The notes under the pieces: generated by a model
What the model was told of the DNA's origin: nothing
The model's database searches: none
The model's input: only the letters and a program-made list of their open reading frames with translations
Part shown: positions 49,176 to 55,828 of the stretch, piece after piece
Layout of the letters: each line of letters begins with the position of its first letter
How positions within the stretch are numbered: the stretch's first letter is position 1
Assembly: GCA_045563025.1 (NCBI GenBank)
Contig: JBJKUS010000005.1
Coordinates: 34,718-98,717 of the forward strand
DNA: 64,000 nucleotides
Direction: 5' to 3'
Source of the DNA: Alphaproteobacteria bacterium
Lineage (GTDB): Bacteria > Pseudomonadota > Alphaproteobacteria > Methylaequorales > Methylaequoraceae
Translations under genes and position numbers: made by a program

Positions 49176-49451
49176 TTGCTTTTTTTTGATCTAGATAAAC
49201 CCAATCCACAAGAAATAAAAAAATGGATGGAAAAAAATGAATTTTCTATTAAAAGTGCTTCAGATGCATTAGGAGTCAGCAAACGTCAATTTTCTAGGTT
49301 TTTATCAGGAGAAACTGAAGCTAAAAGAGTACACTCACTGGCTATGCAAATGATATGGTTAATTAATGAAAATAAAAAAAATATCTTAGATGAAAGTGAA
49401 AAAAAGAATAATGCCAAAGGTTCAAAAAGGATTTCTATTCCAATAAAATAA
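49176..49451 (+). CDS. small helix-turn-helix protein, putative regulator
   Basis: 91 aa with an HTH-like segment (SIKSASDALGVSKRQFSRFLSGE). It starts 1 nt after the actP stop. Confidence 0.4.
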   Translation: MLFFDLDKPNPQEIKKWMEKNEFSIKSASDALGVSKRQFSRFLSGETEAKRVHSLAMQMIWLINENKKNILDESEKKNNAKGSKRISIPIK

Positions 49452-50374: not shown

Positions 50375-51129
50375 TTTTTTACAAAAATAAAATTATTTAG
50401 CTTCTCATCAAAAGTATAAAAACTAAAACCTAAATCTGAATAGTCCTTAATATCATTTAATTTTTTTATTTGATTCTGTATTAGAAATTTTGCCATAGAC
50501 CCCCTACACTTTTTGATGGTCATACCTATATTAATCAGCTTTCCTTTTTCAATTTTTTTAAAATCAAAATTTACAGTAGTCGTTCCTAAAATTGATTCAT
50601 TTATTGAAGAAAAATATTCTTTTGAAGCCAAATTAAATAGATATTCAGAATCATTTTCTAAAATATCTTTTTTCAATGAAGTCGTTATATCTTTTTGCCA
50701 AAATTCTAGTAGAGATTGCCCTAAAATAGACTTGGTATTAGTACCCATTTCAAGTCTGTATGGACTTATTAAATCTAAAGGTTTCAATATTCCATATAAA
50801 CCAGATAAGATCCTTAATCTCTTTTGAGCTAAAATTAAGGAATTCTTGTCGAAAGAATTTATAGACAAACCATTAAAAGTATCGCCAGAGAATAAAAAAA
50901 CGGCAGGCTTTCTTAGAACATTATCATCTGAGAAATCAGAAAATCTTTTTGAATTTAAATCTGCTAGAGAGTCACTGATATTCATAAGACTCTTTATGTC
51001 TTGTACATTAAGTTTGTCTAGAACACTTATTAATTTTTTAGTTTTTTCTTTGAAAGCCGGAATACTATTCTGAATCTTAAATTCAAAAGGTTCAAGATTT
51101 AAGTTTTTAGCAGGTGAAATTAATATCAT
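50371..51129 (-). CDS. yaaA: YaaA-family (UPF0246/DUF328) peroxide-stress protein
   Basis: 252 aa with the N-terminus MILISPAKNL and conserved SGLYGILKPLDLISPYRLEM. Confidence 0.8.
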   Translation of the reverse strand: MILISPAKNLNLEPFEFKIQNSIPAFKEKTKKLISVLDKLNVQDIKSLMNISDSLADLNSKRFSDFSDDNVLRKPAVFLFSGDTFNGLSINSFDKNSLILAQKRLRILSGLYGILKPLDLISPYRLEMGTNTKSILGQSLLEFWQKDITTSLKKDILENDSEYLFNLASKEYFSSINESILGTTTVNFDFKKIEKGKLINIGMTIKKCRGSMAKFLIQNQIKKLNDIKDYSDLGFSFYTFDEKLNNFIFVKK

Positions 51130-51172
51130 TATGTAATGATATAATGAATTTAAAAAAAAAATAAACTTTAAA

Positions 51173-51640
51173 TTATTTTATCATAGCCCATTGCCCACTT
51201 TCCTTTCTACAAGCTGTATCAAAGGTATTTTGAGCAATATCTTTTCTATTAATGTAAATATGTTCAATTAATCTACAATTTGGTTTTCCGTAATATCCTT
51301 TTATCTTGACAACACCCTTGCTTCCACTTTTAGGGTTTCTCCAATAACCAGTCAAAAGAGAATTATCATAATCATTTAATTCTAAAGTTCTAAGAGTCTC
51401 CTGTTTGTAAAAATAATAATCATCTTGTCCCAAAAAATCTGCTAGGTATGAACCAATGATTAATCCAACAGTCGAACCTATTGATGTTGAGAATAAATCA
51501 CCATCCGATAGATGATAACCTATATACCCACCGCCAGCAGAGGATGTTGTCTTTACAAGATTATTTTGATTAAAATCTGATAATGTACAACTTTCTGAAG
51601 AAAAAATTAGTGTTAAAATTAATAAAAATCTTTTAATCAT
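51173..51640 (-). CDS. 17 kDa surface antigen-family lipoprotein (paralog of 29284..29751)
   Basis: 155 aa with a lipobox (SSESC), a glycine zipper (SSAGGGYIGYH...GSTVGLIIGS), and a C-terminal ACRKESGQWAMIK that matches ACRDENGNWKII of the paralog and the Rickettsia 17 kDa antigen. Confidence 0.7.
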   Translation of the reverse strand: MIKRFLLILTLIFSSESCTLSDFNQNNLVKTTSSAGGGYIGYHLSDGDLFSTSIGSTVGLIIGSYLADFLGQDDYYFYKQETLRTLELNDYDNSLLTGYWRNPKSGSKGVVKIKGYYGKPNCRLIEHIYINRKDIAQNTFDTACRKESGQWAMIK

Positions 51641-52109
51641 TCAAATACCTGCTAATAAGTTGATCTCTTTCACTTAGATTATAAATACTTTTATTAAAGT
51701 TTCCATTATTCCTAAATTCTATAGATTTAAAAGAAAAAGCATTATTATTCATTTCATTTCTAAAATTATTGACTAAATTTATCTGATCTGATTTTGCCTT
51801 AACTGAAAGCATATTTGCATTATGAGTGTTTGTTGAAAAATAATCCTTATAACCAAGAGGCGAGAGATTTATTATCTCATCTGGAACAATATTGAAGGGT
51901 GAAAAAAAACCAGAGTCAAACAATTGTTTTCCCAGGTATCCGATTGATCCTGATAATGTTAAGTATTGAAAAGCATAACTTAAACTTCTTATTTTAGGAT
52001 TATTTATTCCAGCAGCACCTTCACTTCCAAAAATTTCTGTAAAAGCACTTGCCTTTAAATTTGAACTAAAGAAAAATAAAATAAAGTAAAAAATAAAAAA
52101 ATATCTCAT
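51633..52109 (-). CDS. secreted hypothetical protein
   Basis: The start is placed at the internal Met (MRYFFIFYFILFFFSSNLKASA, signal peptide); the ORF-track start is 52145. No known motif. Confidence 0.4.
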   Translation of the reverse strand: MRYFFIFYFILFFFSSNLKASAFTEIFGSEGAAGINNPKIRSLSYAFQYLTLSGSIGYLGKQLFDSGFFSPFNIVPDEIINLSPLGYKDYFSTNTHNANMLSVKAKSDQINLVNNFRNEMNNNAFSFKSIEFRNNGNFNKSIYNLSERDQLISRYLND

Positions 52110-52169
52110 TACATTAACTTGCATTATAAACTTAAAACGACACATCTCTAAAAAATTTAGAAAAAATTT

Positions 52170-52460
52170 CTAATTATTTAGATAATTAATTTCTTCAATA
52201 ATCAGCATTTGTTGTTGTATAGGAAGGCTTTCAAAGCTCCTAAAAGAAATATCTTGTGATTTATTTTGATAGAAATTTGAAAGGATCTTATTTTTTTTGT
52301 AGAGATCGCTCTCATAATTTAGTGATTTGTCAAAATACTGATCATAAACCATTGCAGCACCAGTTTTTATAAGGAAAAATTCAAATAAATTCAAAGAACT
52401 TACCGATCCAGGAATAAAAACAATGAGGTTAGTAAAAAGAATTATTTTTTTTAAAATCAT
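52170..52460 (-). CDS. small secreted hypothetical protein
   Basis: 96 aa with an N-terminal signal-like helix (MILKKIILFTNLIVFIPGSVSS). Confidence 0.35.
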   Translation of the reverse strand: MILKKIILFTNLIVFIPGSVSSLNLFEFFLIKTGAAMVYDQYFDKSLNYESDLYKKNKILSNFYQNKSQDISFRSFESLPIQQQMLIIEEINYLNN

Positions 52461-52547
52461 ACTGTAACATTACAGAAAAAACATTTATTTAACAAGTTTA
52501 TGATATGAAATACAATTAATAAATAAGTAATTCTTTAATAATTAGAA

Positions 52548-53576
52548 TTAATTTTGTCCAAATCCAAACTGCCATCCAATCATAATTTTATATGTTTCAG
52601 ACATTTGAATTCCTCTTACTTTTTGATAAATGGGTAGAACTATCTCTAATCCTAACCTATGATTTCTTAAAAAGTCCTTGTTATTAATATAATTTATTCC
52701 GAAACCTAAATTTATTTTCTGATGACCAACATTATTTGAATCCATTGATGGGTTCATTCTTTTATTCATTTCATCATCACTTCCATTAATTTGTCCAAGA
52801 TATTTATAATTAAATTTGATAGCAGTACTGACATTCTCCAGCCATCTGTAAGAAGACCAAATTGTTGTATCTATTGATGTACCATAGTGATAACCATTTC
52901 TATTATATCCTGAAACTGGTTTTTTAATAATAAATTGCTCACCTACTTTAACTTTGTCAAAATTATTCACATTATTAATTAAAAAATATGGATCAAATGT
53001 TCCGGTTCCATTCTGCATACCATAACCTAATCTAGCACTTGAAGACATAGGAGTAGAGTCTCGCTTATCAATTCCCCCCATTGGAAAGCTTACTCCAAGA
53101 CCAATATGTGATTTTAAGAAATCGCTTTTATATAATCGGATAAGAGCTGATAATCTCGTATCACTAATACCATTTGAATTAACATTGAATCTAGTTCCTC
53201 CAGACATTCTCATTCTTTCTGAAGTCATTTCTTTTTCAAGATAACCTGTCATTAACATAAAAGTTAAATTATCTGTAGGTGCATACATTCCCCCAAACAT
53301 ATGCATATTCATATTCATTAAAGTTGGTGAATTCATATATCTACCAGAACTATCCGAAGCGCCATTAGGTGCAGACATTACTGAATCTATTGAAATTTTA
53401 TTTTGTCCTTGTAACATGCCACCCATCTTCATTTTGCTTAATCGATATGAAAACATAAATTCATTTTTTTTATGCAGATGATCACCAATAACAGAGATTG
53501 GTCCGTGACTATCTGCGAATATAATTTCGTCTGATAAAGCCGAACTTGAGTAAATAAATAATAAAAAACAAAACAA
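52548..53576 (-). CDS. putative outer-membrane beta-barrel protein, methionine-rich (CopB-like?)
   Basis: 342 aa with a signal peptide and Met/His-rich segments (DHLH, MNMNMHMFGGM, MTSERMRM). Alternating hydrophobic strands end in an aromatic-rich C-terminus (IMIGWQFGFGQN). The CopB assignment is tentative. Confidence 0.4.
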   Translation of the reverse strand: MFCFLLFIYSSSALSDEIIFADSHGPISVIGDHLHKKNEFMFSYRLSKMKMGGMLQGQNKISIDSVMSAPNGASDSSGRYMNSPTLMNMNMHMFGGMYAPTDNLTFMLMTGYLEKEMTSERMRMSGGTRFNVNSNGISDTRLSALIRLYKSDFLKSHIGLGVSFPMGGIDKRDSTPMSSSARLGYGMQNGTGTFDPYFLINNVNNFDKVKVGEQFIIKKPVSGYNRNGYHYGTSIDTTIWSSYRWLENVSTAIKFNYKYLGQINGSDDEMNKRMNPSMDSNNVGHQKINLGFGINYINNKDFLRNHRLGLEIVLPIYQKVRGIQMSETYKIMIGWQFGFGQN

Positions 53577-53630
53577 CTGATCTAAGCATAAGATCTCTCC
53601 TTCAAAGTGTTAAATTAAAATTAGATTAGA

Positions 53631-53951
53631 TTAAATTAAATTTGCAGTTGGAGGAGAGTTGTTTTTTTGTTCAATATATAATTGGTATTCTTCTTTTTTT
53701 AATTCAATGTTGATTTGAAATCTTGATATATTGTATTCAACATTATTGAAAGTTTTAAAAGAGGTATCTTCAGATGCAAAACAATTAAATTTACAACACT
53801 CATAGTTTTTTTCTGAATTTTTATTTTGGTTCTCTGTACAAAACTTTATGGGAAAAATTTTAACAATATCGTTTGCAATAGAGACTTGTAAAAAGAAACA
53901 GTAAAATAAAGTGGTGAAAAAACTTGAGAATAATAAATTTCTTTTTTTCAT
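53631..53951 (-). CDS. small secreted Cys-rich hypothetical protein
   Basis: 106 aa with a signal peptide and five Cys in the mature part (FCTEN...YECCKFNCF). Confidence 0.35.
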   Translation of the reverse strand: MKKRNLLFSSFFTTLFYCFFLQVSIANDIVKIFPIKFCTENQNKNSEKNYECCKFNCFASEDTSFKTFNNVEYNISRFQINIELKKEEYQLYIEQKNNSPPTANLI

Positions 53952-54064
53952 CTTAAATTTTATTTTAGTAATCTGTAATAAGTACTATATTTAATAATTA
54001 TTTAATATATATTTTTTTATTTGTAGTATAAGAGTTTAAGTTTAGGGTTTTATAAATTATAAAT

Positions 54065-54436
54065 ATGGAATTTTTCTTAGAGTCATTTCTTAATCAATAC
54101 TCAGGTAATCTAAGGGGGTTTATTTTTGGATTTGTCCACGTAGGTATAATGTTGTTAGGGTATTATTCAGGATGGAGTATAAATAGATTTTTAAAAATAG
54201 TTTCCAATGGATATATTGCAGGAATTGTAGGCGCAGCAATGTCGCATATCATTGCCGATCTCATAGCAAGTTATCTAGATCCGCACTTAAGAACTATGAT
54301 AATTGGAATAGTTTTAGGTGGAGTAGTTCCTTTATTATTTATACCTCTCCTTGAAACCTTAATTAAAACAAAGAGTAAACATCACATTGTTACAGGAGAC
54401 CACGAAGATGTTAAAAAGGACCTTGACTCCCATTAA
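54065..54436 (+). CDS. hypothetical small membrane protein (3-4 TM)
   Basis: 123 aa; hydrophobic segments (GFIFGFVHVGIMLLGYY, IAGIVGAAMSHIIADLIA, MIIGIVLGGVVPLLFIPLL) and a His-rich C-terminus. Confidence 0.4.
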   Translation: MEFFLESFLNQYSGNLRGFIFGFVHVGIMLLGYYSGWSINRFLKIVSNGYIAGIVGAAMSHIIADLIASYLDPHLRTMIIGIVLGGVVPLLFIPLLETLIKTKSKHHIVTGDHEDVKKDLDSH

Positions 54437-54472
54437 GATTTCAACTTAACACCCTGCCCTCTTCGAGTTTTA

Positions 54473-54549
54473 TGGTAGCGGAGGAGGGACTTGAACCCCC
54501 GACACGCGGATTATGATTCCGCTGCTCTAACCACCTGAGCTACTCCGCC
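54473..54549 (-). tRNA. tRNA with CAT anticodon (elongator tRNA-Met or lysidine-modified tRNA-Ile2)
   Basis: The minus strand reads GGCGGAGTAGCTCAGGTGGTTAGAGCAGCGGAATCATAATCCGCGTGTCGGGGGTTCAAGTCCCTCCTCCGCTACCA. The anticodon stem is GCGGA/TCCGC with loop ATCATAA. It is not an initiator (no three-GC anticodon stem). CCA is encoded. Confidence 0.85.
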
Positions 54550-54673
54550 ATTATTCTAGTTATCATATGCAAAAAGAAGTGACATATTCAATGCATCATC
54601 TAAATAAACGTAACTAAATTTAATATTAAGAACTAATTGATATAAATTAAATTGTAAAGTCTCTTTTTTAAAT

Positions 54674-55828
54674 CTATGAAAGTCTTTTTTCACCAGATAT
54701 AATCCATCCACCACCAATCAATTTATTCAGATTATCATAAAAAACACAGGCTTGCCCAGGTGCTATTCCAAACTCTGGTTTAAATAATTCTACAATGCCT
54801 GTTTTTTTTTCTTTGTCAGAAATTTTTACTTTTGCAGATATAAGACTCCTTCTAGATCTTACTTTTACATATGCATTAAAATTTGTAGACGGAAATTTTT
54901 TTGAAAAGAAATTTAAATCTTTAACATAAACATAATACTTTCTAAGTTGTTCTTTTGGACCAACAACAATTTTGTTTTGCTTTGAATCAATATCAACAAC
55001 GTAAAGTGGCTTTTGTTCAGATTCTCCTTTAATTCCTCCTACACCGATCCCTCTTCTTTGACCAATGGTAAAATCATAAATGCCCTGATGATCTCCTAAT
55101 ACTTTACCATCATAAGTCACAATCTTTCCTTTTTTTGGTTTATAATTGAGTGTTTTTTTTATAAAATCTCTATAATTACCGTCTGGAACAAAACATATGT
55201 CTTGACTGTCAGGCTTTAAAGCTACATCAAGCTCGTATGATTGTGCTATCTCTCTTATCTGTTTTTTACTAAAATGACCAAGAGGAAACCTTAAATACTT
55301 TAATTGATCTTGAGTTGTAGCAAATAAAAAATAGCTTTGATCTTTCTGACCGTCATTAGCTTGATGAAGCTGAATACCATCTTTAGATTCTATTCTTTTT
55401 ACATAATGCCCTGTGACTAACACGTTGGAATTGAGTTTTTTACTAAATTCTATTAGATCTCTAAATTTAACAGTTTGGTTACACGTGATGCATGGAATTG
55501 GAGTTTGCCCATTTAGATAACTTTCGACAAAATCATTTATCACGGAATCTTTAAAGTTGTTTTCGAAATTTAGAATAAAATGTTTTATTCCAATTTTTTT
55601 GCAAACATTTCTTGCATCTGCTATGTCAATACCTGCGCAACACGTTTTTGTACCTTTTTTTTTTGCCTCATAGAGTTTCATAGTTACTCCAATTACCTCA
55701 AATCCTGCATTATGAAGTAAAACTGCCGTTACAGAGGAATCAACTCCACCTGACATCGCAACTACAACTCGTGAGCCCCTTGGTGGTAAATTGTTTATAC
55801 TAATTAATTTATCGTAATCAATATTCAT
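54674..55828 (-). CDS. mnmA: tRNA 2-thiouridine(34) synthase MnmA
   Basis: Contains the PP-loop SGGVDSSV and a catalytic Cys region. The start is taken at the Met whose ATG overlaps the iscX stop (TAATG); the ORF-track start is 55849. Confidence 0.9.
   Translation of the reverse strand: MNIDYDKLISINNLPPRGSRVVVAMSGGVDSSVTAVLLHNAGFEVIGVTMKLYEAKKKGTKTCCAGIDIADARNVCKKIGIKHFILNFENNFKDSVINDFVESYLNGQTPIPCITCNQTVKFRDLIEFSKKLNSNVLVTGHYVKRIESKDGIQLHQANDGQKDQSYFLFATTQDQLKYLRFPLGHFSKKQIREIAQSYELDVALKPDSQDICFVPDGNYRDFIKKTLNYKPKKGKIVTYDGKVLGDHQGIYDFTIGQRRGIGVGGIKGESEQKPLYVVDIDSKQNKIVVGPKEQLRKYYVYVKDLNFFSKKFPSTNFNAYVKVRSRRSLISAKVKISDKEKKTGIVELFKPEFGIAPGQACVFYDNLNKLIGGGWIISGEKRLS

Follow-up and report, generated by a model that had tools for sequence, protein, structure and literature searches.

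A candidate copper-sensing leader peptide ahead of a Met/His-rich outer-membrane barrel beside a tRNA in a low-GC alphaproteobacterium

We analyzed a stretch of 64,000 nucleotides from an alphaproteobacterial metagenome-assembled genome (MAG; assembly GCA_045563025.1, contig JBJKUS010000005.1, positions 34,718 to 98,717), which we refer to as the window, and concentrated on the genes that lie between a 17-kDa-like lipoprotein gene and a tRNA with a CAT anticodon. Two adjacent genes on the minus strand of this region, a short Cys-containing open reading frame (ORF) named cys106 and a gene for a Met/His-rich outer-membrane barrel, probably constitute a two-gene copper module, a reading to which we assign a probability of roughly two in three (0.68). 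According to this reading, cys106 would be a leader of the same kind as CutF and CruR that switches on translation of the barrel, and the barrel would be a TonB-independent copper uptake channel that is repressed by copper. An earlier note on this DNA, made without database searches, had described the region as a patch of six uncharacterised proteins at a tRNA, suggestive of a genomic island and of metal handling.

The candidate leader ORF and the predicted RNA hairpin at its junction with the barrel

The ORF cys106 (53631-53951, minus strand; 106 aa) was delimited by ORF calling, alignment of relatives, and motif spacing. Its product has a Sec-type signal peptide (MKKRN, an 18-residue hydrophobic stretch, and then SIA-ND, as judged by inspection), a semi-conserved Cys38, a CxxxC motif, an N-S-P-P sequence, and a five-residue tail, and its stop codon is separated from the barrel ATG by 41 nt. 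Hydrophobic N-termini are present in all aligned relatives. The codons of C53-x3-C57 (53781-53795, minus strand) specify a putative copper-binding motif of the nascent chain, identical in type to that of CutF, and those of N98-S99-P100-P101 (53649-53660, minus strand) a putative ribosome-arrest site. Among 26 close relatives, which are 94-117 aa long, CxxxC and [NQH][SA]PP are both universal though overall identity is about 20-30%; the spacing from CxxxC to PP is 40-43 residues, and a tail of 1-6 residues precedes the stop. An alignment of 23 sequences with a mean identity of 30% has C38, C53, C57, P100, and P101 as its only invariant positions, with S99 present in at least 90%. On alignment evidence, such a combination of low identity, universal motifs, and fixed spacing is what marks a functional nascent peptide, as opposed to a folded domain. 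Because the motifs and their spacing are kept despite this divergence, cys106 looks like a copper-sensing, ribosome-stalling regulatory leader peptide and not like a stable secreted protein.

Proteins of the DUF2946 family have recently been described as copper-sensing arrest peptides (PMC9426467). In Bordetella pertussis, CruR (Bp2923, DUF2946) carries CXXC and RAPP motifs 45 residues apart, both of which are required; the spacing is kept within 1-2 residues, the Arg and Ala of RAPP are required, and CXXC is needed for the copper response. Copper relieves the CruR stall, which leads to Rho-dependent termination before the gene of a TonB-dependent copper importer (Roy et al. 2022, PMC9426467). 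CutF, from the cutFOG operon of Rhodobacter capsulatus, has an essential Sec signal, a CxxxC motif, and a proline-rich end, and here copper prolongs the stall, melting a stem-loop that conceals cutO's Shine-Dalgarno (SD) sequence (Ozturk et al., bioRxiv 10.1101/2022.11.11.516240, 10.1101/2025.02.05.636593).

Like CutF, cys106 is a small signal-peptide ORF with CxxxC, C-terminal prolines, a short gap to the next gene, and a predicted SD-hiding stem-loop. It differs from CutF in having N-S-P-P in place of a PPP stretch and in preceding an outer-membrane barrel rather than the multicopper oxidase CutO, and no sequence similarity between the two is detectable. The rule-based definition of "CutF-like" proteins by Ozturk et al., which includes a length below 150 aa, covers cys106 in its size, C-terminal PP, N-terminal signal peptide, Cys motif, and fixed spacing, and by computation also in the same-strand downstream gene that follows after a short gap with its SD hidden in a predicted stem-loop. 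In common with CruR, it has a semi-conserved Cys, a CxxC-type motif, and an xxPP sequence a few residues from the end, and leaders of both kinds head operons for an outer-membrane protein known or presumed to transport copper, often with PCuAC or PepSY_TM. CruR, in contrast, has CXXC and RAPP with an essential Arg where cys106 has CxxxC and N-S-P-P, and it is followed by a 162-nt intergenic region with Rho-dependent termination instead of a 41-nt gap. The CruR target is a 22-stranded TonB-dependent transporter (TBDT), whereas the protein encoded after cys106 has 12 strands. Membership of cys106 in DUF2946 itself was rejected, as both HMM and hhalign comparisons failed and RAPP with Arg is absent. 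We conclude that cys106 appears to work like CutF and CruR and that it fits the CutF-like definition.

The junction between the two genes is predicted to form an mRNA hairpin (53590-53665, minus strand) that reaches from the arrest-site codons to the barrel SD, GGAGAG (53595-53600), with a minimum free energy of -17.7 kcal/mol (z = -2.6 vs shuffles). In this hairpin the anti-SD sequence CUCUCC (53653-53658), which lies within the Ser-Pro codons UCU CCU, pairs with the GGAGAG of the barrel. A PP-paused ribosome that covers the anti-SD arm and so frees the SD is the design known from CutF and SecM. We compared this arrangement across 22 non-redundant relatives, defining the arrest window as the 36 nt around the first Pro codon. 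The intergenic gap is 28-49 nt in most of these loci, and the pairing probability between the SD core and the arrest window is 0.79 in the window and 0.59-1.0 in 22/22 loci. Predicted native duplexes between the arrest window and the SD have a mean energy of -9.65 kcal/mol, compared with -4.43 kcal/mol for an upstream leader window of the same size and -3.64 kcal/mol for a window inside the barrel gene. The difference between native and control duplexes (Wilcoxon p about 1e-5) and the result of shuffling SD and arrest-window partners between loci (permutation p = 2e-5) come from phylogenetically related loci, which makes the p-value optimistic.

Compensatory pairs were found in several relatives, namely AAUCCCUUU/AAAGGGAUU in L102, AAUACCU/AGGUAUU in L090, AUUUCUC/GAGAAAU in L098, CUCCUAA/UUAGGAG in L100, and ACCUCCU/AGGAGGU in L004; in L002, the pairing (CUUUC/GAAAG) is located right after the stop codon. 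Because different lineages reach complementarity with different sequences, the pairing appears to be more than the anti-SD look of CCU-CCN codons.

These results also bear on the earlier description of cys106 as a five-Cys secreted 106-aa protein. There are exactly five Cys (C18, C38, C52, C53, and C57), and the signal peptide is likewise present, but a leader peptide fits the data better than a stable secreted product. With four Cys in the mature part and a gene conserved beside the barrel, cys106 could be imagined as a stable periplasmic Cys-rich copper-binding protein, such as a chaperone or redox partner, that acts physically with the barrel, with the SD pairing being incidental. We consider this improbable, given that conservation across the 23 aligned sequences is limited to three Cys, one Ser, and two Pro, that the spacing is fixed and the tail only 1-6 residues long, and that the SD pairing covaries. 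Moreover, CutF cannot be detected in vivo, and its action is confined to cis (Ozturk et al.).

The barrel and its genomic contexts

The gene after cys106 encodes a predicted Met/His-rich, 12-stranded outer-membrane barrel with the COG4313/FapF fold (52548-53589, minus strand; true start ATG 53587-53589). The MAG annotation instead uses a TTG at 53576, which yields a protein of 342 aa (52548-53576). In the window, the ATG at 53589, which follows GGAGAG, meets a stop after 26 codons. DNA comparison with two relatives, L082 (98% barrel identity) and L081 (92%), revealed that one extra base in a homopolymer (53563-53568; A6 on the plus strand, T6 in the coding sense) breaks the barrel frame within the signal peptide; both relatives have T5 and an intact frame. 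The other members of the 90% cluster are all 346 aa long and start at the ATG equivalent to 53589. By this comparison, the 342-aa ORF is an artefact of the +1 base in the homopolymer. The extra base itself could be an assembly or sequencing error, a real lesion that makes the gene a pseudogene, or a slippage-prone site.

The 342-aa protein contains 24 Met (7.0% vs 1.84% in the long ORFs of the window) and is mildly enriched in His (2.3% vs 1.35%), in agreement with its earlier description as Met/His-rich. It has 356 database homologues at E <= 0.001, and most of the near-full-length ones are 340-346 aa long and start with MLRSVV. An alignment of 24 members, extending down to 36% identity, contains 46 invariant columns. 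These include three His (H24, H33, and H35, in the motif HGPIxVMGDHxHKK) and ten Met (among them M41, M51, M87, M93, M97, M107, M109, and M117), with a Met ladder that reads MxMxMHMFGxMYAP plus T105-x-M107-x-M109. A profile search of 1.84 billion representative proteins returned 1,304 clusters (at 50% identity) at E <= 1e-30, and a genome scan placed relatives in no fewer than 589 species, drawn from the Alpha- and Gammaproteobacteria, cyanobacteria, Bacteroidota, Planctomycetota, and other groups.

The best structural match of the barrel is Pput2725, a COG4313 channel. Structurally the protein thus falls among the COG4313/PF13557 channels, but it does not reach the PF13557 gathering score: the window protein has no PF13557 match even at E <= 1, its relatives stay at 18-20 bits, below the cut-off of 22, and some database homologues carry a precomputed PF13557 tag. 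No NCBIfam model matched the barrel, and a PDB sequence search with the barrel profile was without match. The family is most appropriately regarded as a separate subfamily with the COG4313/PF13557 fold. Its fold is common to Pput2725 (PDB 4RL8; PMC4493636) and FapF (5O65), at a sequence identity of 10-12%. Compared with these two proteins, the window barrel is about 75 residues longer, carries a His-x8-His-x-His N-terminal segment and the MxMxMHMFGxMYAP Met ladder, and occurs in a context of copper rather than of aromatic catabolism or amyloid secretion. In Pput2725, a barrel of 12 strands, the ~14 residues at the N-terminus are folded inside the lumen (PMC4493636); by analogy, we infer that the invariant His of the segment before strand 1 sit in the lumen.

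The tentative CopB-like label given earlier was rejected, as neither the sequence nor the closest structure points to CopB/PcoB (PF05275). PcoB/CopB (PDB 7PGE) is likewise a Met-rich, copper-linked outer-membrane barrel. B. japonicum PcuB was ruled out as a homologue of the barrel, since PcuB is a TonB-dependent receptor.

To place the family in its genomic contexts, we fetched 160 barrel loci and drew neighbour counts from subsets of them. The gene directly 5' of the barrel is very often an ORF of 90-190 aa with a hydrophobic N-terminus, an "IC" Cys, a C-x2/3-C motif, and xxPP near the stop. A strict CutF-like upstream ORF was present in 63/152 loci, compared with 2/3347 background ORFs, and 94/153 loci passed under a looser rule, which asks for PP within the last 16 residues, against a background of 7.5%, so that a leader ORF precedes the barrel in 41-61% of loci from strict to loose. 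In distant phyla, the leader ends with RAPP, RGPP, or RSPP, and some upstream ORFs of Gammaproteobacteria have full-length DUF2946 matches that stay below threshold (14-20 bits vs a cut-off of 23.7). BLAST clustering of neighbours in the first 80 loci gave a weak signal, and a Pfam scan of neighbours gave a clearer one: the commonest gene directly 3' of the barrel encodes PCuAC (10/93 loci, best E = 2e-39), followed by PepSY_TM (3 loci, plus 3 with a PepSY_TM-like gene). The copper hint of the earlier note is thus upheld by the type of leader and by the ties of the barrel to PCuAC, and not by the reasons originally offered for it.

The compositional and contextual evidence allows an alternative to be weighed in which the barrel, as a typical COG4313 channel, would carry a hydrophobic or aromatic compound, with structural Met and His and no link to metal. 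Its closest structural match does come from a family implicated in hydrophobic-molecule uptake, and its relatives do have weak PF13557 matches. Nevertheless, the COG4313 family is not reported to have ten invariant Met and three invariant His, the linkage of the barrel to Cys/PP leader ORFs and to PCuAC is tight, and the window protein itself is missed by the PF13557 model, so we regard this alternative as very improbable.

Several further observations were made at these loci. Multicopper-oxidase-like or cupredoxin-like genes lie just 5' of the barrel in some distant loci, as judged by inspection (L028, 4773-5807; L074, 4846-5784; L005, 3773-5283). A gene for an FkbM-type methyltransferase adjoins the leader-barrel pair in L002, L005, and L006 despite their differing genomic places. 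Gammaproteobacterial leaders (L022, 5422-5844; L038, 5352-5795; L075, 5361-5792) combine long His runs (HHHH, HQHHHHQH) with Cys and a RAPP end. In those loci, the gap to the barrel match is ~100-300 nt, compared with 28-49 nt in the low-GC marine group, and this difference in gap length hints at two control modes, CruR-like termination control in the gammaproteobacterial group and CutF-like SD unmasking in the marine group.

Proposed mechanism and the sign of the copper response

From the observed motif architecture, conservation, spacing, covarying SD pairing, fold, and gene-neighbourhood statistics, we infer stalling, copper as the ligand, the sign of regulation, the substrate, and the direction of transport. 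In the proposed mechanism, a ribosome translating cys106 would pause at the C-terminal N-S-P-P and cover the Ser-Pro codons that otherwise pair with the barrel SD, so that the SD would be exposed and the barrel translated. The CxxxC motif, located 40-43 residues upstream, would have just emerged from the exit tunnel at the moment the ribosome reaches PP; it may act as the copper sensor, with copper binding altering the length of the pause. The regulated protein would be the 12-stranded barrel, in which the three invariant His precede strand 1, in the region that in a solved relative plugs the lumen, and the invariant Met ladder is predicted to lie in strands 2-3. The barrel would feed periplasmic copper chaperones and oxidases, and copper would repress it, as in the CruR logic.

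We favor uptake and repression because in other phyla the barrel holds the place of the TBDT between a CruR-like leader and PCuAC/PepSY_TM. Copper-importing TBDTs (OprC, CrtA/BfrG, PcuB, and TccA) are found at the same place in their operons, following a CruR-type leader and preceding PCuAC/PepSY_TM, and they and the barrel have a presumed common role in supplying copper to the periplasm. TBDTs, however, have 22 strands and a plug and are energised by TonB, whereas the barrel is small and would have to act passively. According to a 2026 study, the only known copper-specific outer-membrane importers are TBDTs, and copper is otherwise assumed to leak through porins. Judged from gene order, the barrel replaces the TBDT in an otherwise familiar copper-supply operon. 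PF13557 is absent from the supplementary material of the CruR and CutF papers, and the barrel may still appear in their figures.

The sign of the response is the point on which the main competing explanation turns. It keeps the same leader-barrel module and assigns it the CutF logic: copper would prolong the stall and turn the barrel on, and the barrel would let copper exit from the periplasm, in functional terms an analogue of PcoB/CopB. A hairpin of the CutF-like design is just as compatible with copper induction, since the short gap and the SD-masking hairpin are those of CutF, where copper induces the downstream gene. A signal peptide, essential in CutF, is also present, Met-rich outer-membrane proteins are classically copper-resistance proteins, and the multicopper-oxidase-like genes seen by sequence inspection 5' of the barrel in L028 and L074 would suit such a role. 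With the barrel standing in the place of an importer, we deem copper-induced export unlikely, while taking it more seriously than the other alternatives, and retain copper-repressed uptake as the preferred reading.

Besides the relatedness of the 22 loci, several findings weigh against a copper-repressed uptake module. The barrel gene is frameshifted in this MAG, and a lumen-facing orientation of its His and Met is putative. Solved COG4313 relatives are tied to hydrophobic substrates (PMC4493636), and a PCuAC HMM search of the window ORFs found none. On the side of the leader, cys106 and the leaders of L001 and L002 had no match to Pfam DUF2946 (PF11162) at E <= 1, and the RAPP Arg that is essential in CruR is replaced by Asn, Gln, or His in the 26 close relatives. 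An hhalign comparison of NSPP-type with RAPP-type leaders was not significant (E = 0.11), and because of this result we claim a common architecture for cys106 and CruR/CutF, and not homology. Finally, CCU-CCN Pro codons are intrinsically anti-SD-like, and the pairing could in part be a by-product of them; shuffling of partners between loci speaks against that view, as do loci that have their anti-SD elsewhere than in the Pro codons.

Neighbouring genes, the tRNA flank, and wider meaning

The genome region is low in G+C, ~29% across the whole window. Between yaaA and mnmA, the minus strand carries the 17-kDa-like lipoprotein gene, two genes named h170 and h96, the 342-aa barrel ORF, and cys106. 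The ORFs and the tRNA were located where the earlier note had put them (ORF call, ARAGORN, Rfam). Its count of six proteins in 51633-54549 needs adjusting, as only five ORFs lie within 51633-54436 (170, 96, 342, and 106 aa on the minus strand and 123 aa on the plus strand), and the sixth is the lipoprotein gene at 51173-51640. All six are consecutive "hypothetical" loci in the source MAG (ACJ0G5_04760-04785), and MAGs that carry the labels "Rickettsiales bacterium" and "alpha proteobacterium MED-G10" encode near-identical proteins. When the six proteins were scanned against Pfam and NCBIfam, no model scored above threshold, in keeping with the low annotation reported before for this stretch. 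The single weak match was that of the 17-kDa-antigen-like lipoprotein (51173-51640, minus strand) to PF16998, which is below threshold (E = 1.6e-4, 21.9 bits vs a cut-off of 26.6); its gene is syntenic in relatives.

The gene h170 (51633-52145, minus strand) encodes a lineage-restricted exported or membrane protein. Its start is most likely Met13 (52109, 158 aa), as in most homologues, and the annotated start is probably 12 codons early. It has 115 homologues, all from marine contigs or MAGs and none with a Pfam domain, and its AF2 model is all-helical with low confidence (pLDDT 68.6, pTM 0.25). The h170 stop and the start region of the 17-kDa gene overlap by 8 nt, which suggests translational coupling. 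The gene h96 (52170-52460, minus strand), characterized through its ORF, Pfam/NCBIfam scans, and synteny, encodes a small, lineage-restricted exported protein. Both h96 and h170 have signal-like N-termini and a narrow distribution, and neither showed Cys, His, or Met enrichment by composition or domains by Pfam/NCBIfam.

The two genes lie 3' of the barrel in 10 of the ~22 close contigs with enough downstream sequence and are absent in the rest (e.g. L003-L006 and L095-L097). The leader ORF is always present in these contigs, including those that lack h96 and h170. Therefore, the conserved functional unit is leader plus barrel, and h96, h170, the 17-kDa lipoprotein, and tm123, a divergently transcribed gene described below, are neighbours without demonstrable involvement. 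No features pointing to metal were seen in h96, h170, or tm123.

On the plus strand, tm123 (54065-54436), delimited by homologue search and synteny, encodes a small membrane protein of 123 aa with a His-rich tail. It has 7 His, four of which are within the last 21 residues, which bears out the His-rich tail described earlier; it also contains an S-H-I-I-A-D motif. It has 3,365 homologues without a Pfam domain, and identities for the best 120 listed, Puniceispirillum among them, are 68-99%; the gene is at the same position in L081, L084, and L086. Given this number of homologues and this identity range, tm123 is a highly conserved core gene of marine Alphaproteobacteria and not island cargo. 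It is far better conserved than the adjoining genes.

The tRNA with the CAT anticodon (54473-54549, minus strand) was identified by ARAGORN and by Rfam (63 bits), and it was the only element found in an Rfam scan of 51000-54800. A promoter scan gave 30 promoter-like sites where 24.5 were expected, and a terminator scan was likewise uninformative. On the other side of the region, a 91-aa ORF (49176-49451, plus strand) begins right after the actP stop and contains a helix-turn-helix-like segment, SASDALGVSKRQFSRFLSG; it occupies the same position in L001 (72% identity) and L002 (59%).

The earlier note had read this stretch as an island inserted at the tRNA with metal-handling cargo, and had named conserved synteny in relatives as the finding that would speak against it. 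The block does adjoin the tRNA 3' end. We found, however, that the order upstream ORF-barrel-h96-h170-17kDa-yaaA-GT-actP is retained in synteny in 10 related contigs, whose barrels are as little as 55% identical. Two of these relatives are the single-cell genomes L001 (66% barrel identity) and L002 (58%), in which hscA-fdx-iscX-mnmA-tRNA is followed, after an intervening slot, by cys-barrel-h96-h170-17kDa-yaaA-GT-hyp91-actP in the same order, and eight metagenomic contigs retain cys-barrel-h96-h170-17kDa, some with yaaA and further genes, again down to 55% barrel identity. In relatives as well, the tRNA lies between mnmA and the module. The absence of an integrase and of a direct repeat, already remarked on in the earlier note, was borne out by the searches made: no integrase-like ORF was found among the window ORFs (ORF list, Pfam/NCBIfam scans), no second copy of the 25-nt tRNA 3' end was found with <=3 mismatches allowed (attL/attR search), and a general direct-repeat search returned AT-rich chance matches only. 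The GC content of the block is 0.275, compared with 0.289 for the window. Neither compositional deviation nor a presence/absence pattern of the kind expected of a tRNA-integrated island was observed, and tm123 is a core gene.

What does vary among relatives is confined to a small slot beside the tRNA. In L001 (3594-5083), the slot from mnmA/tRNA(CAT) to the leader ORF holds an adhesin-E-like gene and two unknown ORFs. In L002 (2777-5604), an FkbM methyltransferase gene comes after the tRNA, and genes for a cytochrome c and a glucose/sorbosone dehydrogenase come before it. This slot is a small flexible spot without integrase or repeats. Differing slot contents between tRNA and leader ORF are what an island reading could still draw on, but because synteny of the block holds in relatives, that reading is refuted and we give it almost no credence. 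To judge from gene order, the stretch is conserved core genome.

Copper-sensing arrest peptides (CruR and CutF) have been described only in 2022-2025 and in a few model proteobacteria, and the present system is probably a divergent form of this recently discovered regulation, attached to a possibly new kind of copper gate. If the proposed reading is true, a large uncharacterised barrel family (~1,300 clusters at 50% identity) would be a dedicated, regulated copper gate of different architecture, and the reach of the arrest-peptide switch would include abundant ocean bacteria of low GC, where it would take a divergent form (NSPP, CxxxC, 28-49-nt gap) that is missed by Pfam. The leader-barrel module is compact (~1.4 kb) and offers a handle on copper acquisition for oxidases in oligotrophic bacteria. 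More tentatively, and with somewhat less than even confidence, we suggest that the barrel family, with members in at least 589 species, may represent the first channel for copper-specific uptake across the outer membrane that works independently of TonB. It would be a small gate of 12 strands, with a Met ladder and a lumen segment rich in His, which streamlined marine Alphaproteobacteria would control through a new N-S-P-P variant of the arrest peptide that unmasks the ribosome-binding site.

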